Shown one piece after another: positions 2,454 through 35,142 of a stretch of 64,000 bases of DNA. The notes under the pieces are model-generated. The model was not told the DNA's origin. It was given only the letters and a program-made list of their open reading frames with translations, and did no database searches. The translations under genes were made by a program, and so were the position numbers. The first letter of the stretch is position 1. Each line of letters opens with the position of its first letter. The stretch comes from Planctomycetota bacterium. GTDB lineage: Bacteria; Planctomycetota; UBA8108; UBA1146. The stretch spans positions 11,686-75,685 of the forward strand of contig JAYZBV010000072.1 in assembly GCA_036338595.1 (NCBI GenBank), given 5' to 3'.

Positions 2454-3065
2454 TCACCTTCTGGGGTCGGGGGGATCAATTCGCTGCTGTTCCAGCCGCA
2501 GCAGAGCCTCCTGCATCTGTAACTGGATCGACATCAGATCGTCGATTCTCAGAGCCGTCTGCTGCTGCCGACGGACCAGTTCCAGGTGGCTCTTGTGGGT
2601 TGCTGCCAGTTGCTCTTCCAGTTGCTGGATCTTCTGAAGCAACTCCTGCTTATCCTCAGAGGAGTTTCGATGAGCCTCCTGAAGGCGTTGCAGTGCTGTA
2701 GTCTGGCTCTTCTTCAAACTCTCCAGCTGGGCGGTCAGCGATTGCCCCAGATCCTCGCTGCTTTCGGCGATCTTTTCCATCTGTTCGTCCAGTTGATCTG
2801 TCTTGCTGATGAGCCTCTCGTCGAGTTCTGTCACCCCCGATTGAACTCCCTGGAGATCGGTCCGGAGGGTGCCGATGGATTCATCGATACGATCCACATC
2901 GCCGTCGAGGCGCTGTACCTCCCCTCGCAGCAGGGAGTCCTCGAGTTGAAGGTCCACCTGTTGCTGTTCAAGGTGATCGATCTGGCGTTGCTGTCTGGAC
3001 CCTGTCCACAGGAAAGCGATGGTCAGCGTTGCGATGGCGACCACGATGAGGCTCATTAATTTCAT
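2454..3065 (-). CDS. Membrane-anchored coiled-coil protein of unknown function
   Basis: N-terminal hydrophobic helix (LIVVAIATLTIAFLW) followed by about 170 aa of Q/E/L-rich heptads; GGAGA RBS upstream. Confidence 0.75.
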   Translation of the reverse strand: MKLMSLIVVAIATLTIAFLWTGSRQQRQIDHLEQQQVDLQLEDSLLRGEVQRLDGDVDRIDESIGTLRTDLQGVQSGVTELDERLISKTDQLDEQMEKIAESSEDLGQSLTAQLESLKKSQTTALQRLQEAHRNSSEDKQELLQKIQQLEEQLAATHKSHLELVRRQQQTALRIDDLMSIQLQMQEALLRLEQQRIDPPDPRR

Positions 3066-5014: not shown

Positions 5015-6952
5015 ATGGTGAATCAGGGTACGAGCCAGGGAATCGATGGTCCGCAACAGACCGGTGCTTCCATCGATCTGATCAAATTCTGGGATGAACT
5101 GGGATTTGGTGGGCGCGTCGGGGTGGGGGCGGCTCTCTTTTTCGTGGTCGCATTCATCTTCACTTCATCGATGAAGAACGATTGGATCGACATCCCTGTC
5201 GGCGATGTCGAACGCGACTTTGAACTCACCGAGATCCTCAAGGGCAAGCAGATCGATTTTCGCTTCAATGACGCGGGTGGCCTTCAGGTGCCGAGTATCC
5301 GCGCATCAGAGGTATTTTCACTGCTTCACTCGAATACAGCGGCGGCTGATCAAGCGGATCCATTTGACTGGGTAGGTCAGTCTGGATCGCTGATCGACAC
5401 TTCCAGGCAGCGAGAGCAGCGCTGGGAACGGTCGCAGATCGAGCAACTCGAGGAGGACCTTGCCCGCCTCGAGGGGGTCGACTCGGTGAGCGTGACACCC
5501 AATCGATCGATCGGAGCATCGGTGATTGCTTCGAGCCGCAAGATTACCGGTGTCAGCGTCCAGGTAGATCTCGATGCACAGCTGCGGCCCGCTGGACTCA
5601 GCCAGTCGATGGCGATGTCGATTGCAATGCATGTTTCCGGGGCATACGGGGTTTCGACAGAGAAAGTCATCATCACGGATACCACCGGTCACTACTACGA
5701 TCTCGACAATTCACAGGTGACAGCAGGGGATGTCGTGGAGAAGAAAAAAATCGTCGAACAGTATGTGGTTCGATACCTCTCGGCGATTTTTGATCCTGAG
5801 ATGTTTCGTGTGGTCGTCGATGTGAGTCTGGCCAACCCGGTATTCGAGACGGTCGAGAAGTCAGGTTACATCCCGGGCAATAACCCGGTGGTGCCGGGTA
5901 TCTACGATCTCCAGGAGCAGGTGGCTTCTTACTCACCAATTTCGGCACAGTTTGCGGACTCAGTGGTGACCAGAGCCACAGCTCAGCAGATTCCAGGCCG
6001 TACAGAAGCGGATCCCGCGATCGCAGGTGTTGAAGAGGTTGCGGTCACGGTGATGCTGGATCGTCAAGGCGCCATCGCCAGAGCCAGCGCCAACGGAGGC
6101 TACAGCCGCGGCACTGAAGCAGCCAGCGGGCAACGGAGCGTCGGGCAACTGCTGCGTGAGTTTACCGCCACGATCGTCGATGGCCTCACGTCTCACCTCA
6201 GGGTTCATGTCGGTAGCGATTCAGTGATCCAGGCCAGGGTGCTTCCCGTCAACTTCAAGGGTGTGCTCTCGACTGCTGAGCCGGTCAAGGTTCAGAGTCT
6301 GGCCAACGAAGAATTCGCAGGGTACCCCTTCTCCTTCTACTTCCTGCTAGGAGGGGGATTGCTGGCAGTATTCTGGATATTCCGCCATGGCCCCAGAGAC
6401 TCGACTGTCGAGCCAGCGATAGCAGGGTTCGGTGCGGCGAGATTCGCCCAGGATCGGGTCCGAGAGAGTGTCAATACGATCTTCGAGGAGTGTGAAAGCT
6501 CCATCACCGAAAAAGCGATCGAGCAGATCCGTAGCCTCGATGTTCCCGAGTCAGTCGAGGTTCTTCGGCATGTCATCTCGCACGATGAGGGTGAACTACC
6601 GGGGTGCTCGGTGCTGGCACTACTGGTACTCGATCAATGCCCAGCCCGAGCCGAGATCTTCAATGCCATGAATCCGGAAGAGCTGTCGACACTGTCGGGG
6701 ATGATCTGCGGAGTCGAAGCCATCCATCAAGAAATGATCGCAGATGCACTGGCAGTACTGGACCTCTTCCAGGGTGTACTGTCCGGCTCCAGTCCGACAA
6801 CAGAAGTTCCCTCAGCCATCGATGTGATTCCGACTCAATTCGAAATCCAGCGATCCGTGATCGACGACATCAGATCCAATGATTCGAAACTGGCAGATCT
6901 GATCGAGGGAAATAGCAGCGGCTCCAGTTCAAGGGAGGTTCAATCGCCATGA
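5015..6952 (+). CDS. fliF: Divergent FliF/SctJ-like MS-ring protein with a fused C-terminal partial FliG-like segment
   Basis: Two TM helices (GVGAALFFVVAFIF; FSFYFLLGGGLLAVFWIF); ring-building-motif-like stretches EQLEEDLARLEGVDSVSV, SIAMHVSGAYGVSTEKVIITDTTG, YLSAIFDPEMFRVVVDVSL; first gene before fliH; RBS GAGGGAG before ATG 5015. Confidence 0.75.
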   Translation: MVNQGTSQGIDGPQQTGASIDLIKFWDELGFGGRVGVGAALFFVVAFIFTSSMKNDWIDIPVGDVERDFELTEILKGKQIDFRFNDAGGLQVPSIRASEVFSLLHSNTAAADQADPFDWVGQSGSLIDTSRQREQRWERSQIEQLEEDLARLEGVDSVSVTPNRSIGASVIASSRKITGVSVQVDLDAQLRPAGLSQSMAMSIAMHVSGAYGVSTEKVIITDTTGHYYDLDNSQVTAGDVVEKKKIVEQYVVRYLSAIFDPEMFRVVVDVSLANPVFETVEKSGYIPGNNPVVPGIYDLQEQVASYSPISAQFADSVVTRATAQQIPGRTEADPAIAGVEEVAVTVMLDRQGAIARASANGGYSRGTEAASGQRSVGQLLREFTATIVDGLTSHLRVHVGSDSVIQARVLPVNFKGVLSTAEPVKVQSLANEEFAGYPFSFYFLLGGGLLAVFWIFRHGPRDSTVEPAIAGFGAARFAQDRVRESVNTIFEECESSITEKAIEQIRSLDVPESVEVLRHVISHDEGELPGCSVLALLVLDQCPARAEIFNAMNPEELSTLSGMICGVEAIHQEMIADALAVLDLFQGVLSGSSPTTEVPSAIDVIPTQFEIQRSVIDDIRSNDSKLADLIEGNSSGSSSREVQSP

Positions 6953-7743
6953 ACGACGAAGTATTTTCGCCGACGGATGAGGGCCCAACCGAGATCTTGC
7001 AATCTGAAGTGGAGGCACGTCAGCGCCTGGAAGCACTACAAGTTGCCTACCAGCAACTGATGCAGAAACTGCTCGTCGATGGCCAGAAGTCCATCGCTGC
7101 CATCGAGTTGGCCAGGGAGTCTTCACTGGTAGCGCTCGAGAAGCACAAGAACGAGGCCAGGTCTTCAGGACTTGAACAAGGCCTGGAGGATGGTCGCAAG
7201 CAGGGCTTCGAAGCGGGCCATGCCGAGGGAATCCAGCTGGGACTCGAGGAAGGCCGCCGTGAATTTACACGGAGCGTCGAACAGAGGGCCTGTGAACTGG
7301 TTTCCCAGAACTGTGAAACATTGCCACAAACACTGGCGTCCGCCATCGAGGAGTTCTCCCGATGCTGGAAGGACACGATAGAAGAAACACGGCGTGACAC
7401 CGTGAAGCTTGCCCGTGGAATCGCTCAGAGGGTCCTCCGTCGCGAGATCGAGGACTTGCCATCGGTTGTAGTGGAAAACATCGAGCTTGCCGTGCAGCGG
7501 ATCGGTGATCGATGTCAGATCGTCATCGAGGTCAATCCCGCAGACCTCACAGCTGTAGTCCAGTTTCTTCCGCTTCTTGGACAGAAGTTTGAAGGTGCCG
7601 AGGGCGCAGAGGTGGTCGGGGTAGAGTCGATCTCACGCGGCGGTTGCCGAGTTCGCAGTCGCTCAGCGAGCGTGGATCTGACGATGGAAATGCAGTTGGA
7701 TCTGATCGAATCGGCACTGATCAAGGATTCCCAGGAGAGTTGA
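6949..7743 (+). CDS. fliH: FliH/SctL export ATPase stator/regulator
   Basis: GxxxG repeats (GLEQGLEDGRKQGFEAGHAEGIQLGLEEG), IEVNPADL, ISRGGCRV; ATGA overlap with fliF. Confidence 0.9.
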   Translation: MNDEVFSPTDEGPTEILQSEVEARQRLEALQVAYQQLMQKLLVDGQKSIAAIELARESSLVALEKHKNEARSSGLEQGLEDGRKQGFEAGHAEGIQLGLEEGRREFTRSVEQRACELVSQNCETLPQTLASAIEEFSRCWKDTIEETRRDTVKLARGIAQRVLRREIEDLPSVVVENIELAVQRIGDRCQIVIEVNPADLTAVVQFLPLLGQKFEGAEGAEVVGVESISRGGCRVRSRSASVDLTMEMQLDLIESALIKDSQES

Positions 7744-9065
7744 TGAATTTCATCGATGCGCTCGAGTCACTGAATACGGGACAGATGGTGAGGGTGCGCG
7801 GCACCGTTGCTCGCGTTACAGGAGTGATCGTTGAGGCCCAGGGCCTGTCACTACCTGTGGGAGCTGAGTGCACCATCCGGACTCGAGAAGGTGATCTGGT
7901 GGTGGCAGAGGTGATCGGGTTCTCCGGTGACAGGTGCCACTTGCTTCCCGAGTCGGGCATCTCAGGAATCGCTCCTCAAGATGTGGTGATTCACGATGGA
8001 GAAAAGCCCAGCGTCGAGGTCTCTCACCAGCTGCTCGGTCGCGTCATCGATGCAAGGGGGATCCCCATCGACGGAAAGGGACCCGTCCCCTGTGGCGAGA
8101 AGATGCCCATCCATGCGAAGCCAGTTCCAGCGCTTGAGCGTCAAAGAATTGACCGGGCAGTCCACACGGGTGTGCGCGCCTTTGATTCGATCCTGACTGT
8201 GGGAGTCGGTCAGCGCCTGGGGATCTTCTCGGGAAGTGGTGTCGGCAAATCTACGCTGCTTGGAATGATAGCAAGGAACACCGAACTCCCGATCAGGGTG
8301 ATTGCTCTGGTCGGAGAACGAGGTCGAGAGGTCCGGGAGTTCATCGATAGAGACCTCGGTCCGGAAGGCCTTGCACGAAGTGTTGTCGTGGTAGCGACAG
8401 GAGATGAAGCCGCCGTGATGAGACTGAGGGCAGCCAAGGTTGCCACCTCCATCGCAGAGTGGTTCAGGGATCAGGGCGAAGATGTTCTGTTGCTGGTCGA
8501 CTCCATCACCAGGGTCGCCCTCGCTCAGCGCGAGGTTGGCCTGTGCGCCGGGGAGCCTCCCACAACTCGCGGATACACACCCAGTGTCTTCGGGATGCTC
8601 CCACGGCTCCTCGAGCGAACTGGACCCGGCAAGGTCGGAAGCATCACTGCATTCTATTCCGTTCTTGTCGAAGGGGATGACCTGCACGATCCGATAGGGG
8701 ATGCAGTAAGAGGGATTCTAGATGGGCAGATCTGGTTGAGTAGAGATCTCGCAAATCGGGGCTGGTTCCCGCCTGTAGACCCATGTGCCAGCACCAGCAG
8801 GACGATGAACTCGGTGGTCGATCCTGACCATCTCACCGCTGCTCGCTCACTGGTTGAACTGGTGGCGACTTACCGTGAGATCGAGGACATGGTGCGTATC
8901 GGTGCGTATGTCCGCGGCCAGGATCAAAGATCGGACGCTGCACTCGATGCGATGCAATCGATCGAGGAACTGTTGCGTCAATTGCCTGCAGAGAAGAGTG
9001 AGTTCGAGCTCACCAGGAAGCGCCTGATCGATATCACCAGTAACTCCAGCTGGGAGGTTGCCTGA
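7743..9065 (+). CDS. fliI: FliI/SctN type III export ATPase
   Basis: GQRLGIFSGSGVGKSTLLGMIAR (Walker A), VGERGREVREF, LLLVDSITR (Walker B), GEPPTTRGY, ILDGQIWLSRDLA. Start ATG at 7743. Confidence 0.97.
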   Translation: MNFIDALESLNTGQMVRVRGTVARVTGVIVEAQGLSLPVGAECTIRTREGDLVVAEVIGFSGDRCHLLPESGISGIAPQDVVIHDGEKPSVEVSHQLLGRVIDARGIPIDGKGPVPCGEKMPIHAKPVPALERQRIDRAVHTGVRAFDSILTVGVGQRLGIFSGSGVGKSTLLGMIARNTELPIRVIALVGERGREVREFIDRDLGPEGLARSVVVVATGDEAAVMRLRAAKVATSIAEWFRDQGEDVLLLVDSITRVALAQREVGLCAGEPPTTRGYTPSVFGMLPRLLERTGPGKVGSITAFYSVLVEGDDLHDPIGDAVRGILDGQIWLSRDLANRGWFPPVDPCASTSRTMNSVVDPDHLTAARSLVELVATYREIEDMVRIGAYVRGQDQRSDAALDAMQSIEELLRQLPAEKSEFELTRKRLIDITSNSSWEVA

Positions 9066-9523
9066 TGTCGACCGATGATTTCCGACTCGATGCGTTGCTC
9101 AGATTGCGAAAGAAGGAAGCTCATCTGCAACAGGAAAAACTGACCGCCTGCATCCAGAAACTGGAAGAGCAGCGCCAGGAAATGGGCAGAACTAACGAAA
9201 AGTACCACTCGGTCGTCACAGCCCTCCGCCAGGAGGATCAGGCCGGTGCAACACTCTCGGAACTGATGGTTCATCGCCGGTACCTCGAACGGATGAGAGA
9301 TCTTGCGAAGGAACAGGGCGAACTCGCCGTTTCACTGGCAGCGGATCTGGAACAGGTCCGAGGTCATGTCGTCGAGGCCATCCGTCAATGTCGCGTGGTC
9401 GAAAAATTGAAAGAACGGTTTGAAGAGCGGGAATCAGAGCGTGTCAAACGCAGCGAGCAGCGACTCGTCGATGCAGAGACCAGCGCTCGGATTGCGGCGG
9501 GGATCCAGGCGGAGTCAGCCTGA
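9065..9523 (+). CDS. fliJ: FliJ/SctO export stalk protein
   Basis: 152-aa coiled coil beginning FRLDALLRLRK and containing VEKLKER...EQRLVD; directly follows fliI. Confidence 0.85.
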   Translation: MSTDDFRLDALLRLRKKEAHLQQEKLTACIQKLEEQRQEMGRTNEKYHSVVTALRQEDQAGATLSELMVHRRYLERMRDLAKEQGELAVSLAADLEQVRGHVVEAIRQCRVVEKLKERFEERESERVKRSEQRLVDAETSARIAAGIQAESA

Positions 9524-9579
9524 CAGGGCGTCGAATTCTGCTCAGTAGCGATGGGAATACAGTGGAAAGGAAACCAGCG

Positions 9580-10245
9580 ATGGCAAGTCTCGGGAGTCGA
9601 AGAAGAAATGAACTCCGCTGGGTGAGAACCGTGGTTCTGTTGGCAGTGCTGGTGATCGTTGTCACCACATTCATCGATGCGCAACAGTTTCCGGTCCCGG
9701 AAACAGCAACCAATGCTGAGGTGTCAGGAACTCCGGTGCCAGACGAGCGTTTTGCCAATGGAGGGGTCATTTCTGCCGCCAGTTCGGGCAGTACCTCGGG
9801 ACCATGGAAAACACTTCAGGCACTCGGGGCGATTTTCGTCATCACAGGAGTGGGAATCGGTGGGTACTTCTTGATTCGAAAATTTGCGCCAGGAGCAATC
9901 CCGGGGACAGATGCCCGCATGAAGGTTCTGATGCGGATGCCCATCGGGAATCGCCAGAGCATCATCATTCTTCGGGTAGGTGACAGGGTGCTTGTTGTGG
10001 GCGCTTCCTCCGGCGGCATGAAGTGCCTCAGCGAGATCACCGATCAACATGAAGTTGAAAACCTCAGCTACGGTGTGGAGTTCTCACGGGAACGGAGAAA
10101 AGTAAACGAATTGGTAGATAGCGAGGAGCTCGGCGACTTTGTCGAGGACGATGAGAAAACCAGCGATGTGCAACATGAGATCGAGTGGCTTCGTGACCGC
10201 CTGGATGGTTACGGAGAAAAGGTCGAAGGAAAGGTGCGTACGTGA
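9580..10245 (+). CDS. fliO: FliO/FliZ family export-gate chaperone (start could be 9562)
   Basis: TM helix then MKVLMRMPIGNRQSIIILRVGDRVLVVGASSGGMKCLSEI, a FliO-type beta domain; precedes fliP. Confidence 0.8.
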   Translation: MASLGSRRRNELRWVRTVVLLAVLVIVVTTFIDAQQFPVPETATNAEVSGTPVPDERFANGGVISAASSGSTSGPWKTLQALGAIFVITGVGIGGYFLIRKFAPGAIPGTDARMKVLMRMPIGNRQSIIILRVGDRVLVVGASSGGMKCLSEITDQHEVENLSYGVEFSRERRKVNELVDSEELGDFVEDDEKTSDVQHEIEWLRDRLDGYGEKVEGKVRT

Positions 10246-11087
10246 TCAACGTTCGGCGCTCACTGATTTTGGGAGTCATCGTAGCGTTTGCGATATTGTT
10301 CATCGCAGCGCCTGTAGCGATGGCTAGCGCTGGTGATGGCGAAGCCGTAGGAATCATCGATCGAGTCCTGAGTGGATCTCCGGGGGATGTCGATGTTTCC
10401 ATCAAACTGATCTTGCTGACAACAGTACTCGCGATCGCGCCGGCACTATTGATGCTGACGACCTGTTTTACTCGAATCATCGTGGTACTGGGCTTTGTCA
10501 GGCGAGCCATCGGCACCCAGGATTCGCCACCCAACCAGGTCCTCGTGGGACTCTCCTTCCTGCTCACACTGGCAGTGATGGGGCCTGTCTGGAGCGATAT
10601 TTACACCAATGCGATCCAGCCCTATGCAGACCAGACTCCGATGCCGACCACCGGAGAGGTGCCCACCGGGGAAGAAGCGTACGCATACGCAGATTCAAAG
10701 ATGCGTGAGTTCATGTACCACGCCATCGACGAGGGTGACCTGCTATTGATGGCCAGGGTAGGTGCAGCGAAGACGGTCGAGGAACAATACGAAGAAGACG
10801 GGATCATCAGCGCTGAATTTGTCGATTCATTACCAACCACGGTGATCATCCCGGCGTTTGTCCTCAGCGAGCTGAGGAGAGCCTTCGAGATGGGATTCAT
10901 GATCTACATCCCGTTCGTCGTCATCGATCTCGTGGTCTCCGCATTACTGGTCTCGATGGGGATGCTGATGCTGCCTCCAGTGGTAGTTTCGCTCCCCTTC
11001 AAGGTGCTGGTCTTCGTGCTGGTGGACGGTTGGGGACTGGTAGTCGAGCAACTGTTGTTCTCCTCGATGGTGACGGTGACCGGATGA
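10242..11087 (+). CDS. fliP: FliP/SctR export gate protein
   Basis: TTCFTRIIVVLGFVRRAIG, PPNQVLVGL, IPAFVLSELRRAFEMGF, MGMLMLPP, LPFKVLVFVLVDGW; signal-peptide-like N-terminus, a flagellar-type trait. Confidence 0.97.
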   Translation: MINVRRSLILGVIVAFAILFIAAPVAMASAGDGEAVGIIDRVLSGSPGDVDVSIKLILLTTVLAIAPALLMLTTCFTRIIVVLGFVRRAIGTQDSPPNQVLVGLSFLLTLAVMGPVWSDIYTNAIQPYADQTPMPTTGEVPTGEEAYAYADSKMREFMYHAIDEGDLLLMARVGAAKTVEEQYEEDGIISAEFVDSLPTTVIIPAFVLSELRRAFEMGFMIYIPFVVIDLVVSALLVSMGMLMLPPVVVSLPFKVLVFVLVDGWGLVVEQLLFSSMVTVTG

Positions 11088-11362
11088 CACGATTAGATGT
11101 AGCACTGGATTTCCTCCAGCAGGCGTTGCTCGTTGCACTGCAACTGTCGGTGCCAATATTGTTAGTGATGATGATTGTCGGAATTGCCGTGAGTCTCATC
11201 CAGGCGATGACACATCTACAGGATCAAACTCTCACCTTTGTTCCGAAGATCCTTGCCGTCGCCGTCGCTCTGCTTCTGCTGATGCCACTGCTTCTGGGAT
11301 GGGCGACCGAGTTCACCAGGGAAATGATCCAGGCCTCCGCCGTCGCGCTGGGTGGGGGGTGA
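11084..11362 (+). CDS. fliQ: FliQ/SctS export gate protein
   Basis: VGIAVSLIQAMTHLQDQTLTFVPKI; ATGA overlap with fliP. Confidence 0.95.
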   Translation: MTRLDVALDFLQQALLVALQLSVPILLVMMIVGIAVSLIQAMTHLQDQTLTFVPKILAVAVALLLLMPLLLGWATEFTREMIQASAVALGGG

Positions 11363-11368
11363 TCCAGG

Positions 11369-12202
11369 ATGGCTGAGCTGTTCGAATACTCCACATCCTC
11401 ATGGGCCGGTTGGTTTCTCGTCTTCACGAGGATCTCGGGAGCGATGATGGTGCTTCCCATCTTTTCTTCTCGCACGATTCCGGCGCGGATCAAGGCTGCG
11501 ATTGCGGCGCTGATCGCGCTCTGCGTGGCACCACTGGCCATCGCAGATCCATCAGGAACCGGCACGAGGCAGATGGGAGAGTTGATGGCGACGCCGCTGG
11601 CTGGCGCTGTCTCCATCTGTGGTGAACTGGCTCTTGGCTGGGTCCTGGGCGCCACTGCAGCGGTGTTGATGTGGGGAGCACACCTCGGGGGGCAGTTGAT
11701 CGGACAGGATTCCGGGCTGGCATTTGGTCAGGTGGTCGATCCCACGACCGGGCAAGCGACGGCTCCGACGGCGAACTTGATGATGATTTTCGCAGGACTT
11801 GCTTTTCTGGCACTGGAAGGTCATCGGCTGGTGATCCTGGCGCTGTGCGGCTCCTTCGATGCCGTTCCTCCCGGATCCATCGGCAATATCCTGATACACG
11901 GGGTTCCCCTCACCACGGCTGCTCAGATCACGAGCGAACTCGGCTCGCAAACCTGGATGCTCGGACTGCAAATCGCTTTTCCGGCCAGTATTGCGCTGCT
12001 GGTGACGACCGTGGGTCTCGGTTTGATGGCCCGGATGATTCCCGAGATGAATGTCTTTGCGGTCGGCTTTGCAGTTCGTACAGGGGTTGGAATGCTAGCC
12101 CTCTTCATGACACTTCCCTTCATCGCGGATCTATTTGGTGCTGTCGTCGCGACGGGCCTCCAGGGATCGCAGATGATCCTCAGTGGACTCGGGGGGAACT
12201 GA
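11369..12202 (+). CDS. fliR: FliR/SctT export gate protein
   Basis: FTRISGAMMVLPIFS, GELALG, GQLIGQDSGL, DP, GHRLVI, GLMARMIPEMNVF. Confidence 0.95.
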   Translation: MAELFEYSTSSWAGWFLVFTRISGAMMVLPIFSSRTIPARIKAAIAALIALCVAPLAIADPSGTGTRQMGELMATPLAGAVSICGELALGWVLGATAAVLMWGAHLGGQLIGQDSGLAFGQVVDPTTGQATAPTANLMMIFAGLAFLALEGHRLVILALCGSFDAVPPGSIGNILIHGVPLTTAAQITSELGSQTWMLGLQIAFPASIALLVTTVGLGLMARMIPEMNVFAVGFAVRTGVGMLALFMTLPFIADLFGAVVATGLQGSQMILSGLGGN

Positions 12203-12215
12203 AGTGATCTTCCAG

Positions 12216-13043
12216 ATGACTGACCACGGTGAGAAAACCGAGGCCCCAACGCGCAAGCGATTGGAATCTGCACGACTGGAGGGTCGGGTAGCACTGAGCA
12301 GTGATCTGGTCGGATCCTTCGTGCTGACGTCTGGTTTCGGATTCTTGCTTTTCTTCTCCGGGAGCATCTTTGCAGCGATCTTCTCGGGGACCCGAGCATC
12401 TCTGGGATCCATCGGGAGCATCCGACTCAACGAGCAGGCAAGCCTACAGTTGCTGACAGATGCGGTGGAACATTCCCTCGTCATCCTGTTGCCGATACTG
12501 CTGACGATATTTGCCGTGGCGGCGGTGGTGACATGGTTGCAGGTAGGCCTACGCATCCGGACAGGGGAGGTGTTGCCGGATCTGACCAGAGTCGATCCGA
12601 TTCGAGCACTGATGAACATCCTCGGCCTGGGTGGACTGCGGCGAGTGGGAATGGGAGTGCTGAAGTTGATTGCCGTCGGAATCGTGCTTGTTCCGGGCAT
12701 CTGGGGCTTGATGGGCGACTCCGAAGTGATCCGCAGTGCAGCGGTGGTGGCAGGCGGTGGATCACTGGCTGCGATCGGCACGAAAGTGGTCGAGTTGATC
12801 CTGCAGGCATGTGGCGCCCTGCTGATCGTTTCTGCAGTGGATTGGGCCTTCAGGCGTTGGGCCTACCAGAGATCCCTGATGATGAGCCGGAGAGAAGTGG
12901 AGGACGAGAAGAGAGAACTGACAGGCGATCCTCATCTGAGGCGAAGACGCAAGCAGCGTCACCGGCAAATCCTGGAGAAACGGGGTCCGGAGTTCACCGA
13001 CGAGACGTCACTCCACAGCGGATCGAGAGGCGACACCCGATGA
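12216..13043 (+). CDS. flhB: FlhB/SctU homolog with TM domain and linker only; no NPTH autocleavage or switch domain
   Basis: EKTEAPTRKRLESARLEG, four TM segments, LMMSRREVEDEKRELTGDPHLRRRRKQ, then a short tail and stop; 275 aa; ATGA overlap with flhA. Confidence 0.9.
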   Translation: MTDHGEKTEAPTRKRLESARLEGRVALSSDLVGSFVLTSGFGFLLFFSGSIFAAIFSGTRASLGSIGSIRLNEQASLQLLTDAVEHSLVILLPILLTIFAVAAVVTWLQVGLRIRTGEVLPDLTRVDPIRALMNILGLGGLRRVGMGVLKLIAVGIVLVPGIWGLMGDSEVIRSAAVVAGGGSLAAIGTKVVELILQACGALLIVSAVDWAFRRWAYQRSLMMSRREVEDEKRELTGDPHLRRRRKQRHRQILEKRGPEFTDETSLHSGSRGDTR

Positions 13044-15205
13044 ACGAGCACCAGATGCACACACTGACGCCAGTCTCCGGCTGGAAAGATACCATCCGCA
13101 GGAACCGGGATCTCGCCGTCGTGCTGGCGCTTGCGGGGATCCTCATCGCCATCCTTGTGCCCCTACCCGGTCGATTGATGGACGGGCTGCTCGGCGCGAA
13201 CATCGGCTTATCAGTGCTGATCCTGCTCACGGTGGTTTATCTCCGCAAGCCGCTGGAGTTTGCTTCCTTTCCCTCATTACTGCTGCTGGCAACGCTGTAC
13301 CGTCTCGCCCTCAACATTGCCACGACTCGATTGGTTCTCAGTCGTGCAGGAGACGAAGGGGTAACGGCTGCTGGAGATGTAGTGCACTTCTTCGGTGAGT
13401 TTGTTTCGGGTTCCAATTTGATCGTCGGTTTCATCATCTTCTCGATTCTCGTGGTGATCCAATTTGTCGTCGTGACCAAAGGTGCAACGCGTATTGCAGA
13501 GGTGGCTGCTCGATTCACGCTCGACAGGATGCCCGGCGCTCAGATGGCCATCGATGCCGATCTCAATGCAGGGAACATCTCGGGCAAGGAGGCGAGCACA
13601 GCAAGGGAGCAACTCGCCGAACAGGCTGATTTCTACGGGGCGATGGATGGAGCCAGCAAGTTTGTTCGCGGAGATGCCATCGCCGGGATCATCATCACGA
13701 TCATCAATATCGTTGGTGGATTCACCATCGGAGTCCTTCAGTACGGGATGACCTTTGCTGAAGCGGGACGGGTGTTCACGACGTTGACCATCGGAGATGG
13801 CCTGGTCACTCAGATTCCCGCACTCTTTATCAGCGTCGCTGCCGGGTTGATGGTCACCAGAGCATCGACGAGGGGCCAGATCGGGGACGCCGTCGTCGGA
13901 CAGTTGTTCGGCAACCCGAGGGCGCTGGCGATCACGGCCCTGGTTCTTGTGGCTCTCGCCTTCACCGGTTTGCCTCCTGTTGTTCTTGGTGTCCTTGCCG
14001 TATCGCTGGCGACTGTGGCCTACTTGTCGCGTAAACCGAGGCGTGCGCCGGTCAGTACAGGGGCAGCAGTGGCGATGCCCTCACTCCCCGGGGGCGTTGA
14101 GACGGCAGAAGACTCCGGACAGGGGACCACGACCAGCGCCCGCCGGATCGAGTTCTCGGGCCAGCAACCGATTCGCATCGAACTTGGCTACAGTCTTCAA
14201 AGTCTTCTCGAGCCCGAATCGTCAGGAGTGGCTCTCAGTGTCCGGGTTCAGAAACTGAGAGAAGATCTTCAGAAAGAACTTGGATTCTGGATTCCCCCTG
14301 TGCATGCCAAGGTGCAGATCCGGGGGATTCCGAGGCAAGAGTTCAGCATCCAGCTCAGAGAGATTCCCTGTTCGCGTGGTGTGCTGAGAGCGAGGCAGGC
14401 ACTCATCGTTTCAGATCACCGTCGCTCGATCGATGGAATATCAGGAGACGCTGCTGAACTGGAGATTCTTGAGGCTCCTGCAAGGTGGATATCGCTCGAT
14501 GAGGGCGAGATGCGAAAGTCACTCGGGTACCGAGTACTCACTGCGCAAGATGCGCTGATTCTTCACCTTCGCAGCGTGATCATGGAGCATATTCAGGAGC
14601 TTCTGACGCAGAAGGAAACTCGCAGGATCCTTGACCGAGTCGGCGAGGAGTGCCGAACTCTGGTGGACGAAGTGGTCCCTGAACTGCTGCGTGTCGGAGA
14701 GATACAGAAAATTCTCCAGTCGTTACTCGCAGAGGGAGTTTCGATCCGGGATATGGAGAAGATCCTCGAAACGCTGGGCGAGGAGGTCCAGCAGCGACCT
14801 GAATCGCGCAAGGATCTCACTGCATTGGCGGAGACGGTGCGAGCATCTCTCGGACGCAGCATCTGTGCTCAATATCTGGATCCGCAGGGCAAGTTGCATG
14901 TCGTCACCCTGGATCCACAGATAGAGAGCGTTCTGCTGGAAGATCTGGCACCTGCCGAGCACGCCGAGAATGCCCCGTGCCTGTCACCACAGCAGCATGA
15001 GTCCGTGATGGAGGCGCTCGTCATGGCGGTGGCCCAGCTGGTTGAGAGTGACCATCCTGCTGTCATCCTCACCTCGCGCCAGCTGCGAATTCCGATCAAG
15101 AAGCTGCTGGAGAAGGAAGTGCCCACGGTGGCGGTCCTCTCCTACAATGAAGTCGGCCACGGGACCACCGTGGAATCTGGGGGGATGGCGAGAATCGTTG
15201 CCTGA
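13040..15205 (+). CDS. flhA: FlhA/SctV major export apparatus protein
   Basis: FPSLLLLATLYRLALNIATTR, GATRIAEVAARFTLD, FYGAMDGASKFVRGDAIAG, TIGDGLVTQIP, LLAEGVSIRD, VLSYNEV; 721 aa from ATG 13040. Confidence 0.97.
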   Translation: MNEHQMHTLTPVSGWKDTIRRNRDLAVVLALAGILIAILVPLPGRLMDGLLGANIGLSVLILLTVVYLRKPLEFASFPSLLLLATLYRLALNIATTRLVLSRAGDEGVTAAGDVVHFFGEFVSGSNLIVGFIIFSILVVIQFVVVTKGATRIAEVAARFTLDRMPGAQMAIDADLNAGNISGKEASTAREQLAEQADFYGAMDGASKFVRGDAIAGIIITIINIVGGFTIGVLQYGMTFAEAGRVFTTLTIGDGLVTQIPALFISVAAGLMVTRASTRGQIGDAVVGQLFGNPRALAITALVLVALAFTGLPPVVLGVLAVSLATVAYLSRKPRRAPVSTGAAVAMPSLPGGVETAEDSGQGTTTSARRIEFSGQQPIRIELGYSLQSLLEPESSGVALSVRVQKLREDLQKELGFWIPPVHAKVQIRGIPRQEFSIQLREIPCSRGVLRARQALIVSDHRRSIDGISGDAAELEILEAPARWISLDEGEMRKSLGYRVLTAQDALILHLRSVIMEHIQELLTQKETRRILDRVGEECRTLVDEVVPELLRVGEIQKILQSLLAEGVSIRDMEKILETLGEEVQQRPESRKDLTALAETVRASLGRSICAQYLDPQGKLHVVTLDPQIESVLLEDLAPAEHAENAPCLSPQQHESVMEALVMAVAQLVESDHPAVILTSRQLRIPIKKLLEKEVPTVAVLSYNEVGHGTTVESGGMARIVA

Positions 15206-15248
15206 CTTACCGAGTCAGTTGGCGAGTTCCTCGCGGGGAAAGGGGAGC

Positions 15249-16688
15249 GTGCTCTTGAATGAGCCAACAGTACCCGGTGACGCGGGGCACACCCGCGTCG
15301 TAGCACCGGATTACGCATCTGCAGTTCGCATTCTTCAGGATCGATTCGGAAGTGATTGGACGGTGGTCCATTCACGGAAGGTTCGAAGGCCTGGATTTCT
15401 GGGATTGTTCGGCGTTTCTGATGTGGTCGTGATCGTCCGCACCGAGGAATCGATGCTGTTCCAGCCTCAGGCAAATCCCGTCGTCTCCTCCAGTGGGAAA
15501 CTGGCGCCACTGGCAATAGATGCGGGTCAGTTTGATGTCCCGGTATCGATCCCTGACCTCGTGCCGGTCATGGCAGGCAATTTCGAGCCGAGCAATGAAG
15601 CGGGGGATCTTGTGTATCGCCTCGAAGATGCTCGCAGTCGGATCGCCGATGAGTTGAAGGCATATTCCAAATCGATGTCAGGACAATCGTCCACTACCGC
15701 ATGGGAATCAGCGCAGCAGCGAACTGATGTGGAATCACTCCCGATCGAAGCTGAGCAACCTGGGGTTGCGACGCAGCTGAACACCGAATGCGATGATGTC
15801 CTGGATGGGAATGCGGATCCGATCGAGCCAGGGGGTGCAGAAAATCTGATCGACATGCACATCTCACAGGGTGAGCACCAGGATGTGGAGCCAGCGTTTC
15901 TCGGAGCAATATTGACTCATTGTGATGTGGCTGGATTTCCTCCTGCGGCAGTGAAGATGATAGTGGAGCAGGTCTGCGCCGATCCGATTGACGAAAGCCA
16001 CGGCCCCGGGGATTACCAGCAGATCGCCAGGGAGAGGATAATTCGCTGCATCCAGGCGAGAATCCCTGACACGGTGCAGATCGCAGCGGGTTCGGTCGGA
16101 CTGCCGAGAGTGGTGGCTCTGGTCGGTCCCACAGGTGTCGGAAAGACCACGACGCTGGCGAAACTGGCGGCACACTTTCATCTGGTCGAGAAGAGGAGAG
16201 TCGGTCTCGTGACTCTCGATTGCTACAGAATCGGAGCCATCGAGCAGCTACGCCGATTCGCCGAGATACTGGGCCTGCCTCTCAAAACAGTTTCCGAGGC
16301 AGCAGGCGCAGCCGAGGCGATCGAGGGCTTCTCCGATTGCGATGTGATTCTGGTGGATACAGCTGGCCGTAGTCAACGCGACCAGGAGCGCCTCACCGAG
16401 GTGCGGGATTCTCTCGCAAACATCGGGGACGTCGAAGTACATCTCTGCCTGTCACTCGCTGCATCGCCGGAGGCGATCGTCGCTGCTGCGGAATCGTTCC
16501 GGATGGTCAAGTACGACCGTGTCATCTTCACCAAGAAGGATGAGTCGTATCGAAAGGGGTTCCTCTGGGATCTGTTCGGCGTGACTCCGGTTCCAGTCTC
16601 CTATGTCACCTGTGGGCAAGAGGTACCCGAGGATATTCAGCCGGCAACCAGGGAACTGATCTGTGAAATGATGATCCAGGGAAGATGA
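15249..16688 (+). CDS. flhF: FlhF SRP-family GTPase
   Basis: VVHSRKVRRPGFLGLFG N-domain; GPTGVGKTTTLAKLA, DCYRIGAIEQL, DTAGRS, TKKDE, GQEVPEDI. Start approximate (GTG 15249 after AGGGGAG). Confidence 0.92.
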   Translation: MLLNEPTVPGDAGHTRVVAPDYASAVRILQDRFGSDWTVVHSRKVRRPGFLGLFGVSDVVVIVRTEESMLFQPQANPVVSSSGKLAPLAIDAGQFDVPVSIPDLVPVMAGNFEPSNEAGDLVYRLEDARSRIADELKAYSKSMSGQSSTTAWESAQQRTDVESLPIEAEQPGVATQLNTECDDVLDGNADPIEPGGAENLIDMHISQGEHQDVEPAFLGAILTHCDVAGFPPAAVKMIVEQVCADPIDESHGPGDYQQIARERIIRCIQARIPDTVQIAAGSVGLPRVVALVGPTGVGKTTTLAKLAAHFHLVEKRRVGLVTLDCYRIGAIEQLRRFAEILGLPLKTVSEAAGAAEAIEGFSDCDVILVDTAGRSQRDQERLTEVRDSLANIGDVEVHLCLSLAASPEAIVAAAESFRMVKYDRVIFTKKDESYRKGFLWDLFGVTPVPVSYVTCGQEVPEDIQPATRELICEMMIQGR

Positions 16689-17569
16689 GAGACCAGGCCT
16701 GGCGACTTCGAAAGATGGTAGAAGAAAAGGTGTTCCCTGTCAGGGGGAGGGCCAGGGTGCTGGCAGTGACCAGTGGCAAGGGTGGTGTCGGAAAGACCAA
16801 CATCTCGGTCGGGCTTGCCATCGCCGCGGCAGCCTCTGGAATCCGCACCGTGCTGCTCGATGGCGATCTTGGTCTGGCCAATATCGATGTACTTCTCGAT
16901 CTCCATCCCAGAAAGCACCTGGGTCATCTGATCGATGGAGAGGCAACTCTCGAAGATGTGCTGATCGACTCACCCGGAGGAATCCAGGTACTACCTGGTG
17001 CCAGTGGTCTGACCAGGGTTGCAGATCTTGGAAATGTTCAGAAACAGCGACTGCTCGAAGCGGTGGCGAGACTGGTGGAAGAATTCGACCTGGTCCTGAT
17101 CGATACGGGTGCTGGGATTTCTCGCGCAGTGCTCGATCTTTGCATATGTGCGGGAGAGGTGTTGGTGGTGACGACACCGGAACCAACAGCTGTCGTCGAT
17201 GCCTATGCGATGCTGAAGGTGTTTTCGGTCGAGGAGTCTACCCCAAAGCAATGGCTGGTGGTCAATCAGGTCCTTTCTCGGGGTGAAGCTCAACAGGTTT
17301 CCAGTCGCATGATCAGTCTTGCTCAGCAATTTCTGGGTGTTGAGGTGAACGGTTGTGGTTCGGTATTGCTCGATCCGCGTGTCAGGGCATCGGTTCGCAG
17401 GAGACAGCATTTCTCTCTCGCCTATCCTTCCTGTCCTGCTGCCAAGGGGGTCAAGGAAGTGGCTCATATTCTCGGTCTGGCGGGGCGAGCAGGGAGCCGT
17501 GGTTTCATGAATCGTCTAAAAGAGATGTGGATCGGGGATCTGAGCAGGCCCCGGGAGCGTTCTCTTTGA
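16685..17569 (+). CDS. flhG: FlhG/FleN MinD-like ATPase
   Basis: N-terminal DQAxxLR motif (MRDQAWRLR), SGKGGVGKT, DGDLGLANID, DTGAG, TPEPT. Confidence 0.93.
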   Translation: MRDQAWRLRKMVEEKVFPVRGRARVLAVTSGKGGVGKTNISVGLAIAAAASGIRTVLLDGDLGLANIDVLLDLHPRKHLGHLIDGEATLEDVLIDSPGGIQVLPGASGLTRVADLGNVQKQRLLEAVARLVEEFDLVLIDTGAGISRAVLDLCICAGEVLVVTTPEPTAVVDAYAMLKVFSVEESTPKQWLVVNQVLSRGEAQQVSSRMISLAQQFLGVEVNGCGSVLLDPRVRASVRRRQHFSLAYPSCPAAKGVKEVAHILGLAGRAGSRGFMNRLKEMWIGDLSRPRERSL

Positions 17570-17742: not shown

Positions 17743-18588
17743 TTGGCGCAGATCGAGTCGGAAGAGACACGGAAAACTATTCCTGCAAACGATTCCCTGG
17801 TCGGAAAGACCCGGATGCAGGATGACCCGGAACTTGAGCAGGTATGGATCGAGTTCAAGGAATCCCAGAGTAATGAACTCAAGAACAATCTCCTGGAGAG
17901 GTATCTGCACATCGTTCGATACACTGCAGACCGTCTTCACATGAAGTTACCTCAACAGGTTGATGTAGAAGATCTGTACAGTGCGGGTTTGTTCGGCCTG
18001 ATGGATGCGATCGACAACTACGATCTGACTCGCGGAGTTAAATTCGAGTCCTACTGCTCGACCCGGGTTCGCGGCTCGATTCTGGACTCACTTCGAAAGA
18101 TGGACTGGGTTCCTCGCCTGGTTCGCTCAACGGCCAACCGGATCGATGCAGCCTGGAAACAGTTCCAGAACGAGACGGGAAGAGAACCCACCGACTTCGA
18201 GATGGCTGAGCAACTGGGAGTGACCGACGAGGAATTCGAATCGATGCAGCGAGAAGCATCTGCGGCTTCCATCGTCTCGATCTCGGAACAGATTTCTGAC
18301 GAAGGGGAGTCCAGGTCACTGAGAAAAATCGATATCCTCAATGACAAGAAGGCCAAGTCTCCCGACGAAGATTCTCTCAGAACTGCGATCAAAGAGTTCA
18401 TCTATGATCAACTGGATTATCGTGAGCAGGCGATCATCGAGGGCTACTACTTCCAGGGGAAGACGATGAAGTGCATCGGATTGAAACTCCATCTGTCAGA
18501 ATCAAGAGTTTGTCAGCTTCACTCGCGGATCATGAGTCGATTGCGCCAGACCTGCGACAAGCACCGACTCGACTTCATGCAGGATTGA
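17743..18588 (+). CDS. fliA: Sigma-28 family RNA polymerase sigma factor (FliA/WhiG)
   Basis: DLYSAGLFGLMDAID, GVKFESYCSTRVRGSILDSLRKMDWVPR, GREPTD, MKCIG-LHLSESRVCQLH. Confidence 0.95.
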   Translation: MAQIESEETRKTIPANDSLVGKTRMQDDPELEQVWIEFKESQSNELKNNLLERYLHIVRYTADRLHMKLPQQVDVEDLYSAGLFGLMDAIDNYDLTRGVKFESYCSTRVRGSILDSLRKMDWVPRLVRSTANRIDAAWKQFQNETGREPTDFEMAEQLGVTDEEFESMQREASAASIVSISEQISDEGESRSLRKIDILNDKKAKSPDEDSLRTAIKEFIYDQLDYREQAIIEGYYFQGKTMKCIGLKLHLSESRVCQLHSRIMSRLRQTCDKHRLDFMQD

Positions 18589-32082: not shown

Positions 32083-32321
32083 TTTCGTTCCTCCGGGAAA
32101 GATCGTAAATCAGGATCAGAAAAGGAGAAAGGGGCCCCAGGGTGGGCACACTCCGACCAAATCTGACATGTTTGGAGAAAATCCGGCTTTTGAGGGGGAA
32201 TTTCAGTTCCGGTGGCGTCATCCTGGTGACTACTGAGGTGGATAGACCCCCTGGTGCTCCCTGGCAGGATTTTGTGTCCTGGAGCGGGGAATCGGGTCGC
32301 CCCCCCGGAGGAAGGAAAATC

Positions 32322-33002
32322 ATGCGCGCTTTCAGTCTGATTCTCGCCTTTGCCCTTGTCGTGTCGACCACCGGCTGGATCGTTGGTCAGTCCAATGAGG
32401 GTGCTCGTAGGCCTCTCGATCTCCCATCCGGCGGTGCCGGAGATGGTGACGAGGATGAAGATGCCCCCGAGTCGATCAACTTCTGGGGTGGTGAATACGA
32501 GGGCGATGCCTTCTTCTGGTGCCTCGACAAGTCGTGCTCGATGAGCTGGAACGGTGAGATCGAGCAGCTCAAGCAGGAGTTCACCCAGACCCTCAACTCC
32601 CTCTCTTCCCAGGCGGAGTTCGGTGTTGTGGCCTTCTCGGAGGGACACATCTCCTGGAATCCGGCACCTCAGCGGGCCAACCCGGCCAACAAGGGATCTG
32701 CCACCGCATGGGTGCTGGCTCTCAACGCTGCGGGTTGGACCTGTATTGGTCCCGCGGGAGTCGAGACTCTCAACATCGCCAACCAGTGTTCGAAGTCGAT
32801 GAAGCAGGTGCTGGTGCTCTCCGATGGCGAGCCGTACTGCAACGGTGCCAATACGGCGACGCAGAGTCTGGCGGACATCACCGCTGCGAACTGGCAGCGA
32901 ATTCCCGTCAATACCATCTACATCGCGACCGACAACGGCGGCATCACCTTCATGCAGCAACTGGCGTCGCAGAACAACGGAACCTTCTTCCAGCCGCAGT
33001 AA
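32322..33002 (+). CDS. Secreted single-domain vWA protein (paralog 1)
   Basis: Signal peptide MRAFSLILAFALVVST; MIDAS-type LDKSCSM, GWT, VLSDGEP; IPVNTI; FMQQLASQNNG; RBS GGAGGAAGG. Confidence 0.85.
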   Translation: MRAFSLILAFALVVSTTGWIVGQSNEGARRPLDLPSGGAGDGDEDEDAPESINFWGGEYEGDAFFWCLDKSCSMSWNGEIEQLKQEFTQTLNSLSSQAEFGVVAFSEGHISWNPAPQRANPANKGSATAWVLALNAAGWTCIGPAGVETLNIANQCSKSMKQVLVLSDGEPYCNGANTATQSLADITAANWQRIPVNTIYIATDNGGITFMQQLASQNNGTFFQPQ

Positions 33003-34061: not shown

Positions 34062-34377
34062 CCCCGGTCCCCATCGGCAATTCCTGCCGATGTCAGATCG
34101 CCCCGATTCCTCGCTGTGGAAGCAATTCACCAGGGCGCAATTATCGTGCCCGGAATCGGACGAAATCGCTCGGTACAGAGGGGCCAAAAGCGCAAAAATA
34201 GGGGATCTTTACTAGCCGGCGAGACACACCGGATCTGCTCTTCCAGACAGACATGACGAATCAGCCGGATGGGCTGAGAGGCTGCGATCTTTCACAGATG
34301 GCGCATCTCTGGTGCATCCGGACAGGCGTCGGTGGAAACAGAAGAGGCGGTGGGAGCCGCCCCGAAAAGGAATCAAC

Positions 34378-35142
34378 ATGAACGCGTCGCGAAACGGAAA
34401 CTCGCCAGCCGAAACCGAGATCTCTCGGTGGTTCTTCTCGAAAAGGTTCGAGGCCACATGGTTACATGTACTGCTGTTGGTGATTCCGCTGCTGCTGATG
34501 AGCAGTCTGTGGCTCTTTTCAGCGGAAGGAGAAGAGGCCTACGTTCGACCCCTCGACATGCCCTCCGGTGGCGGGGGCAATGCCGACGACGATGAGGACT
34601 CTCCAGAAACCATCATCTTCTATGGAATGAACTATGAAGGAGACGCGTTCTTCTGGTGCCTCGACAAGTCCGGATCGATGGACTGGGGCGGAGCGATGGA
34701 GGATCTGAAGCAAGAGGTGAACGGGGCAGTGATGTCTCTGAGTCCTGCAGCGGAGTTCAGCGTTGTCGCCTTCAGTACCAATACCGTGGTCTGGTCCCCG
34801 ACACCGAAACCCGCACGACTGGCTGAAAAGGTAGCCGCACTTGCCTGGGTCAATGCGTTGACTCCGAATGGCTGGACATGCATGGCACCAGCAGCGGTCG
34901 AAACCCTCGGCATCTGTAACATGTCATCGAAGCAGCACCGTCAAGTCATCGTTCTCAGTGACGGAGCACCCTTTTGCAACGATGTAGATACATCGACTCA
35001 GGCACTCTCGGAGATTTCGATGGCCAACTGGCAACAGGTTCCCATCCACACCGTCTTCATCGGATCGGACACTGCCGGGATCGATTTCATGCAAACCCTG
35101 GCTGCATTGAATCAGGGGACATTTCACATCTGCGACAATTGA
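34378..35142 (+). CDS. Secreted or membrane-anchored single-domain vWA protein (paralog 2)
   Basis: Hydrophobic N-terminal segment; LDKSGSM, GWTC, VLSDGAP, VPIHTV, FMQTLAALNQG; aligns by eye with 32322-33002. Confidence 0.85.
   Translation: MNASRNGNSPAETEISRWFFSKRFEATWLHVLLLVIPLLLMSSLWLFSAEGEEAYVRPLDMPSGGGGNADDDEDSPETIIFYGMNYEGDAFFWCLDKSGSMDWGGAMEDLKQEVNGAVMSLSPAAEFSVVAFSTNTVVWSPTPKPARLAEKVAALAWVNALTPNGWTCMAPAAVETLGICNMSSKQHRQVIVLSDGAPFCNDVDTSTQALSEISMANWQQVPIHTVFIGSDTAGIDFMQTLAALNQGTFHICDN

Follow-up and report, generated by a model that had tools for sequence, protein, structure and literature searches.

Fusions of the flagellar ring protein FliF with FliG are known both from nature and from the laboratory. 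The closest natural case is that of the Chlamydiaceae, nonflagellated members of the Planctomycetes-Verrucomicrobia-Chlamydiae group, in which FliF carries a FliG-derived cytosolic tail without a torque domain (PMC4768692); in Salmonella and Vibrio, laboratory constructs that join FliF in frame to the start of FliG assemble into rings (PMC4768692, PMC6079021). Here we describe a comparable fliF-fliG fusion gene in a 64,000-nucleotide stretch of DNA (hereafter the window) from a member of the Planctomycetota (contig JAYZBV010000072.1, positions 11,686 to 75,685). Since a natural FliF-FliG fusion is already known from the Chlamydiaceae, what is new is the piece of FliG that is kept and the context in which it occurs. 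The chlamydial FliF is described as a protein of about 330 residues without the ring-building domains RBM1 and RBM3, its tail has been assigned to the middle domain of FliG (FliG-M), and it occurs alongside a separate injectisome (PMC4768692), whereas the planctomycete fusion has RBM1 to RBM3, a tail that appears to combine the N-terminal domain of FliG (FliG-N, or D1 of its five domains) with a part of D4, and a setting that includes a whole export gate, an ATPase, FlhF, FlhG, FliA, FlgM and FlgN. The laboratory fusions differ in being artificial, the full-frame one retaining the whole of FliG, whereas here D2, D3 and the torque domain, D5, appear to have been deleted and the arrangement is fixed in three genera.

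Salmonella strains that lack rod and hook, Fluke (flk) and FlhB's C-terminal domain (flhB-deltaCCD) resemble the planctomycete system in having no axial structure, FliK or FlhB C-terminal domain (PMC13344023). In such rod-less cells early substrates are reported to be blocked, FlgM reaches the periplasm without rod, hook or FliK while basal bodies are overproduced, and sigma-28 is freed (PMC13344023); for the planctomycete system, export is a prediction from the genes. The Salmonella mutants are engineered, need overexpression and keep the full C-ring and the FlhA dimple (PMC13344023), whereas the planctomycete counterpart arose in nature, is without FliM/N and carries an altered dimple. The needle-less type III secretion system (T3SS) of Myxococcales is likewise an export apparatus without a motor, axial proteins or a secretin at its locus, but it branches with the nonflagellar T3SS and is described as lacking FliG (PMC3459982), whereas the planctomycete cluster derives in place from the flagellar locus of its class and keeps D1 of FliG, FlhF, FlhG, FliA and FlgM. 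We dropped a further candidate parallel, the hat-like structure related to the flagellar T3SS, as it is reported not to be built from FliF (10.1101/2021.09.03.458937), and a preprint on Saltatorellota does not present this case but describes complete flagellar gene sets. A description of this fusion or of the reduced cluster in planctomycetes was not found in the open-access literature; supplementary gene tables, which were not covered, could list such clusters.

The fusion gene runs from an ATG at 5015 to a TGA at 6950-6952 and is composed as follows.

5015..6952, + strand: fliF-fliG fusion gene, 645 residues; profile matches in the PDB to FliF (E 1.5e-5) and to FliG residues 3-62 (E 0.013), and a model that matches FliF rings
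5105..6388, + strand: FliF part, comprising the first transmembrane helix, RBM1-RBM2, a split RBM3 with a shortened insert and the second transmembrane helix (Pfam, hhalign, AlphaFold secondary structure)
6455..6580, + strand: two predicted helices after the second transmembrane helix, residues ~481-522; from their position, probably C-terminal helices of FliF
6587..6760, + strand: predicted FliG N-terminal domain D1, helices 1-4, residues ~525-582 (profile comparisons)
6845..6913, + strand: predicted last two helices of FliG D4, before the MFxF motif, residues ~611-633 (profile comparisons)

Transmembrane helices at about residues 31-52 and 439-458 flank RBM1, RBM2 and RBM3 and are followed by a tail of 189 residues, in agreement with the roughly 190 given in the original prediction, an earlier note made from the letters of the window alone. 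That prediction was also right in finding no separate fliG between fliF and fliH, the start of which overlaps the stop of the fusion gene in an ATGA at 6949-6952. Pfam YscJ_FliF matches residues 70-227 (E 7.7e-12), and hhalign relates the FliF part to the FliF of flagellated relatives with 99.8% probability over 501 columns; by these sequence comparisons, the fused protein is a FliF and not a full FliG. All of RBM1 to RBM3 are kept, with an RBM3 insert shorter than that of the flagellated relative G009, and in the model this insert (residues 276-329, a region of low confidence with a predicted local distance difference test [pLDDT] score below 50) shows no predicted beta-collar strands. Residues 481-522 did not score significantly against a FliF C-terminal profile (9.9, against a shuffled maximum of 11.2), and it is their position that suggests that they are probably the FliF helices that co-fold with FliG-N.

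A profile built from 23 orthologous tails retrieved FliG as its top two matches among 177,635 PDB sequences (FliG residues 3-69, E 7.5e-4), with a second, weak stretch of FliG directly before MFxF. An hhalign comparison with 16 FliG proteins of relatives aligned tail residues 525-582 to FliG 24-82 (29% probability, E 5.9e-4), and a FliG hidden Markov model (HMM) placed the tails at positions ~33-79 and 230-252. Single-sequence searches miss the FliG piece, a tblastn search with the FliG of G009 finding nothing in the source genome, and when 1.84 billion representatives were searched with a profile, eight proteins came up, seven from this clade and one repeat protein, with no FliG among them; the evidence that ties the tail to FliG is therefore that of the PDB, hhalign and HMM tests, by which the tail is FliG derived beyond chance.

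Under the label of FliG-middle-like helices, the original prediction had likened two motifs, at residues 532-579 (6608-6751) and 615-631 (6857-6907), to the armadillo-like motif of FliG and to the helix that follows FliG-M. It is to FliG-N that hhalign matches the first of these, the SVLALL...ADAL stretch (score 33.1, 89%, against a shuffled maximum of 16.7); its score with the middle armadillo domain (11.9, 0.5%) falls below the shuffled maximum of 21.0 and is no match. The ILxxLxxxDxELAxxI resemblance of the second stands, the VIDDIR...LADLIE helix matching the helices before MFxF (score 31.4, 93%, shuffled maximum 17.9). Against the torque domain the tail reached at most 3%. As had been proposed, EHPQ is absent and the torque domain is missing: neither EHPQ nor MFxF was found in the fusion sequence, and FliG_C has no match anywhere in the source genome, the sole FliG_M match of which lies on another contig, in a 580-residue open reading frame (ORF) beside unrelated genes. 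By these profile comparisons, the retained piece is D1 plus the last two helices before MFxF, with D2, D3 (the EHPQ domain) and D5 missing and an internal deletion that runs between structural repeats of FliG. We regard this anatomy as very probable.

Several results pull against the assignment. The whole tail reaches only 29% against whole FliG, Pfam FliG_N stays under its cut-off in all 23 tails (best E 8.7e-4; E 0.11 for the tail in the window), and a continuous alignment of the tail to FliG-M plus D4 is possible (46-56%, score 30). Further, an AlphaFold model of the tail with a mean pLDDT of 71.6 aligns most closely with FliG-M (Z 8.2, root mean square deviation 3.2, 100 aligned residues), as compared with Z 4.5-4.9 for the FliG-N chains of FliF-FliG complexes; in Foldseek no hit passed E 0.001, although the first 10 ranks were all taken by FliG structures. 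However, the co-folded domain of the FliF C terminus and FliG-N has been reported to take a FliG-M-like conformation (PMC6079021), so that the fold cannot decide between the N-terminal and middle domains, and a FliG-M-like fold is what one would predict were two helices of FliF to fold into FliG-N. The similarity to FliG that the original prediction anticipated is thus found, better to FliG-N by profile and to FliG-M by fold; the FliG-M assignment is rejected by profile and lives on as a minority rival owing to the fold match.

Among the 61 genomes searched, full-length fusion orthologues without internal stops occur in 23, namely, the source genome (G000) and all 22 genomes of genera g1, g5 and g7, and in each of them fliH lies directly 3' of the fusion gene; the remaining members of the family match only the FliF part. 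Gapless single contigs span the second transmembrane helix and the tail in sequencing runs X3, X4, X10 and X12, from four studies, that of X10 reaching into fliH and that of X12 reaching 6908, and 19 runs, marine or unlabelled, contain at least half of the words of this DNA. Conservation in relatives, a check proposed in the original prediction, and the bridging contigs both bear the gene out, and we conclude that the fusion is natural and not an assembly artefact. The ratio of nonsynonymous to synonymous substitutions (dN/dS), pooled over 10 pairs in which one sequence was used twice and some pairs are near saturation, is 0.14 in the D1 part, 0.16 in the D4 part, ~0.15 in the tail, 0.15 in RBM1-2 of FliF and 0.18 overall, with a range of 0.14-0.20 across all parts. 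By this measure the tail is under purifying selection. The gene set around it is also the same across genera whose proteins are 26-50% identical.

The cluster to which the fusion belongs is not a flagellum. None of the 23 fusion genomes, which are 79-95% complete, yielded FliG_C, flagellin, FliMN_C, rod/hook proteins or the MotB plug, each of which was found in all 4 flagellated genomes from genera g2, g3 and g6 of the same family. The genes that flank the fusion cluster also flank the complete flagellar cluster of G009; for the flgB/C, fliE, fliK, flgD/E, motA/B and fliN genes of G009 there is no match in G000, nor is there one for the genes of its flgF-fliS locus, flgN excepted, and no chemoreceptor was found in G000. 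The missing MotB plug, rod/hook proteins and flagellin back the proposal of the original prediction that stators cannot drive the ring. What follows the fusion gene is an export module, in the order fliH, fliI, fliJ, fliO, fliP, fliQ, fliR, flhB, flhA, flhF, flhG and fliA.

6949..7743, + strand: fliH (Pfam FliH, E 1e-16)
7743..9065, + strand: fliI, export ATPase, Walker A intact
9065..9523, + strand: fliJ
9562..10245, + strand: fliO
10242..12202, + strand: fliP, fliQ (~11084-11362) and fliR, export gate core
12183..13043, + strand: flhB, which stops where the NPTH cleavage site would stand, without the C-terminal domain
13040..15205, + strand: flhA, of full length, with a conserved membrane part and with replaced residues in the chaperone-binding dimple
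15042..17569, + strand: flhF (GTPase motifs intact) and flhG
17743..18588, + strand: fliA (sigma-28), the product of which shares 56% identity with the FliA of a flagellated relative

FliP/Q/R, FlhA, FliH/I/J and FliO are thus all present, and export itself is predicted from the genes. FliI is 60% identical to that of G009 and keeps its conserved motifs, as do FlhF, FlhG, FliA and, in its membrane part, FlhA. FlhB lacks NPTH and its C-terminal domain, and a second FlhB match was not found in the G000 genome. The FlhA dimple residues D456, F459 and T490 bind the chaperones of late substrates (PMC8166844); T490 is replaced in all 15 sequences from lineages with a cut FlhB and kept in all 16 others, a pattern that amounts to about two events because the cut-FlhB sequences are kin. 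Injectisome-specific genes (SctC-type secretin, SctD and needle) are absent from the cluster. The one secretin examined scores best as PilQ, and relatives carry further secretin-like genes. Elsewhere in the window, 2454-3065 (- strand) encodes a 203-residue protein with an N-terminal hydrophobic helix and a long coiled coil, matching no family over cut-off, and 32142-33002 and 34312-35142 encode a pair of small proteins, alike and with the look of secreted proteins, that show a vWA-like signature by eye and the N-terminal 'RPLDLPSGG' stretch of which recurs in a third protein on contig C37.

The FliA-FlgM pair of the sigma-28 checkpoint is also represented, FliA together with a homologue of FlgM, its putative binding partner. 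At the flgM position there is an ORF of 100-140 residues, in G000 a diverged homologue of 107 residues (contig C55, 14416-14736, - strand; L227, 2005-2325) that precedes tRNA-binding-like and recN-like genes and is missed by Pfam and NCBIfam. A class FlgM profile run over all six frames of G000 has this ORF as its top match (E 0.0086), and hhalign relates it to class FlgM with 96.3% probability (score 53.9, shuffled maximum 14.2). Of 13 fusion genomes, 11 have the homologue according to a profile to which some of them had contributed; a further copy was recognized by eye in G014, and that of G025 lies at a contig end. A diverged FlgN homologue, detected by Pfam in 1 of the 23 fusion genomes, is present in 22 of them; in G000 it stands alone beside a tRNA gene (contig C34, 25768-26292, - strand; L093, 5769-6293) as the last remnant of the flgF-fliS locus.

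About 40 nucleotides 5' of the flgN homologue, all 21 loci carry the motif TCMAG-N15-GCCGAW, which resembles sigma-28 promoters. In five genomes the strict motif has 29 matches, as against 3 for the reversed pattern; it lies upstream of 20 of the 2215 ORFs of G000, and most high-scoring sites there (273 of 295) are intragenic. The motif is also found upstream of flgM, before a receiver-like gene (G000, contig C37, ~9513-9884, - strand) that in G014 and G025 is followed by a GGDEF-type gene, and, in 5 of 5 fusion genomes but not in the one flagellated relative compared (G009), before a gene for a PilQ-like secretin. This secretin gene (contig C99, 6978-8855, - strand) has the motif ~100 nucleotides upstream and lies in a pilM/N/O-like run, the labels being given by eye. 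Genes for a PilZ-domain protein (contig C41, 28554-29627, - strand) and an 88-residue ORF of no known family (contig C23, 14262-14525, - strand) share the motif. A weaker copy (score 14.5) stands upstream of a PrkA-family kinase gene run in G000 (contig C73, 47989-52652).

Similar reductions recur in the class, where FlhA is present in 58 of the 61 genomes and flagellin in 15. Flagellum-less members of g4, g14, f6 and f7 keep similar clusters, and Pfam detects FlgM in 20 of the 22 other flagellum-less genomes. The NPTH of FlhB is present in those flagellated genomes that were read; in g4 and g14 the site is altered, and in the fusion clade, f6 and f7 the protein is cut off. FliG is shortened in four ways, all of which have D1 in common: D1 plus the end of D4 in the fusion, D1-D3 in G011, D1 plus D5 in G036 and D1-D2 in G046. 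G011 (L056) presents an intermediate state, with fliE, a separate 234-residue FliG, fliN and a full-length FlhB without the cleavage motif, and with no rod, flagellin or MotB match. G036 (L072, 15146-15799) has a 218-residue FliG in which D1 is joined straight to the torque domain and a full-length FlhB with NPSE at the cleavage site. G046 (L058), of genus g16, has fliF, fliG (D1-D2 plus an acidic tail), fliO/P/Q/R, a short flhB, flhA/F/G and fliA, without fliH/I/J, an ATPase-less gate. In G045, two extra ORFs (contig C1, 334896-337489) away from the main cluster match only the C-terminal half of FlhA.

A single clade for the 19 flagellum-less FlhA rows, a group defined after the first tree was seen and with G045 left out, is rejected by the approximately unbiased (AU) test (p 1e-54, at least four changes); because these sequences do not form one clade, retention of the gate has recurred. 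The fusion clade itself is unstable in this tree, standing beside its own family under a mixture model (support 93) and near the outgroup under LG+G4 (support 31). The original prediction had taken the fused stub for a docking platform for FliH/FliI. This finds no support in g16, which keeps FliF and an N-terminal FliG (D1-D2) although FliH and the C-terminal domain of FliI were found in none of its five genomes (90-95% complete). As D1 is always kept, once without FliH/FliI, it probably serves the folding of the FliF ring rather than ATPase docking.

On the basis of these observations we propose, with a probability of about 55%, that the fusion forms a nonrotating ring around a gate that exports FlgM to the periplasm and thereby switches on sigma-28 genes. 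D1 would have been kept since its co-folding with the FliF tail is needed for ring assembly or stability; fusion would make the 1:1 pairing of the two permanent, and the D4 helices may, speculatively, stand in for the lost packing of the D2 hairpin on the neighbouring D1. Such a ring would stabilize FliPQR-FlhB-FlhA and would not turn, while the missing C-terminal domain of FlhB would lock the gate in late-substrate mode, as in the Salmonella mutants. FlgM is the likely substrate of the locked gate: that gate would be late-only, and no known late substrate other than FlgM remains. FlgN, which affects both translation and secretion of FlgM (PMC6337784), may stay for that effect. The output would be a small regulon of flgM, flgN, the PilQ-like secretin, the PilZ protein, the receiver/GGDEF pair and the 88-residue ORF, and FlhF and FlhG would set the place and time of gate building, thereby timing a sigma-28 program of pilus and cyclic di-GMP (c-di-GMP) genes.

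A number of points weigh against this proposal. The Salmonella lock required removal of Fluke as well as overexpression. Genus g16 has no FliH/FliI matches, and in the fusion clade, which lacks FliM/N, the ATPase would have to be held without a C-ring. T490 of FlhA is replaced in all 7 fusion sequences and in all 8 from f6/f7, and with such a dimple export may be weakened or directed at other substrates. Identity between the FlgM homologue and class FlgM is only 22-31%, with no Pfam match over cut-off in the 23 genomes. The motif pattern was written after the flgN upstream regions themselves had been seen, and it is patchy elsewhere, preceding the PilZ-protein gene in 3 of 7 loci and the 88-residue ORF in 4 of 7; moreover, a canonical sigma-28 promoter was looked for upstream of the G009 flagellin genes and not found, and for this reason we assign the motif to FliA only tentatively. 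RNA evidence comes from one run with three contigs of 161-205 nucleotides, too little for a conclusion.

Other readings start from different parts of the cluster. The ring of FliF and D1 might, with FlhF and FlhG, mark a pole or division site, export being secondary. As far as is known, planctomycetes divide without FtsZ. The nucleotide motifs of FlhF and FlhG are intact, both genes occur in every reduced cluster read far enough, and FlhG of Borrelia positions FlhF and FliF and affects septation (PMC13712777). We nevertheless think this unlikely: a landmark leaves the retention of FliP/Q/R, FliO, full FlhA, FliI, FlgM, FlgN and FliA unexplained, and FlhF of Shewanella binds mainly the middle and C-terminal parts of FliG (PMC11236974), most of which appear to be deleted in the fusion. 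The gate might instead have been repurposed to secrete new, nonflagellar proteins or to build a membrane structure, possibly via the co-regulated secretin, in a step resembling an early one proposed for how injectisomes arose. The long branches and altered FlhA dimple of the reduced lineages fit this idea, as do the distribution of the motif-bearing PilQ-like secretin and the recruitment of secretins by T3SS on several occasions (PMC3459982), but the cluster holds no candidate substrate, needle or inner-ring partner, and the best PilQ score of the secretin and its place in a pilM/N/O-like run, as labelled by eye, make it quite unlikely.

The model of the original prediction, in which a FliG-M-derived stub like that of Chlamydia replaces the C-ring as the dock of FliH/FliI, draws on the fold match, on a spacing to the D4 helices that fits FliG-M plus D4 and on the retention of FliH/I/J whereas FliM/N were not found. 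Profiles favour FliG-N by 33.1 to 11.9, the PDB search picks FliG 3-69, the FliG HMM matches fall at 33-79 and 230-252, and g16 has FliG-N without FliH/FliI, so that we hold this model to be quite improbable too, and slightly the more so. A decaying, functionless relic of a recent loss of the flagellum, to which the shortening of several genes and their divergence past Pfam cut-offs might point, is largely refuted already by the low dN/dS in all parts, the lack of stops in the 23 matches, the constancy of the gene set across divergent genera and the recurrent retention of the gate; we consider it very improbable.

The shortened forms of FliG amount to a natural deletion experiment, in which, of five domains, the FliF-binding one is the only one common to all four, and the retention of D1 points to what MS ring and gate require after rotation has been lost. 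The gene set is a natural counterpart of the Salmonella FlhB-CCD mutants and makes the secretion-switch model testable on an evolved system, and the graded living intermediates (full, g14, g4, f7, g16, fusion) trace a reduction from flagellum to export only, a step proposed for the origin of the injectisome. If the gate exports FlgM alone, a checkpoint of flagellar assembly would have become a signalling device in its own right, and the 'flagellar genes' of such genomes should not be taken as a sign of motility. At somewhat less than even odds, we tentatively extend this to the class: the flagellum would have been lost at least three times, each time leaving the same minimal machine of FliF ring, FliG D1, export gate, FlhF/G and FliA/FlgM/FlgN, with FlhB switching disabled, as an anti-sigma-secreting developmental switch. 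Such a switch, if real, would control pilus and c-di-GMP genes and put the type III gate to a third use, in addition to those in flagella and injectisomes, and the FliF-FliG fusion would be its most reduced ring.

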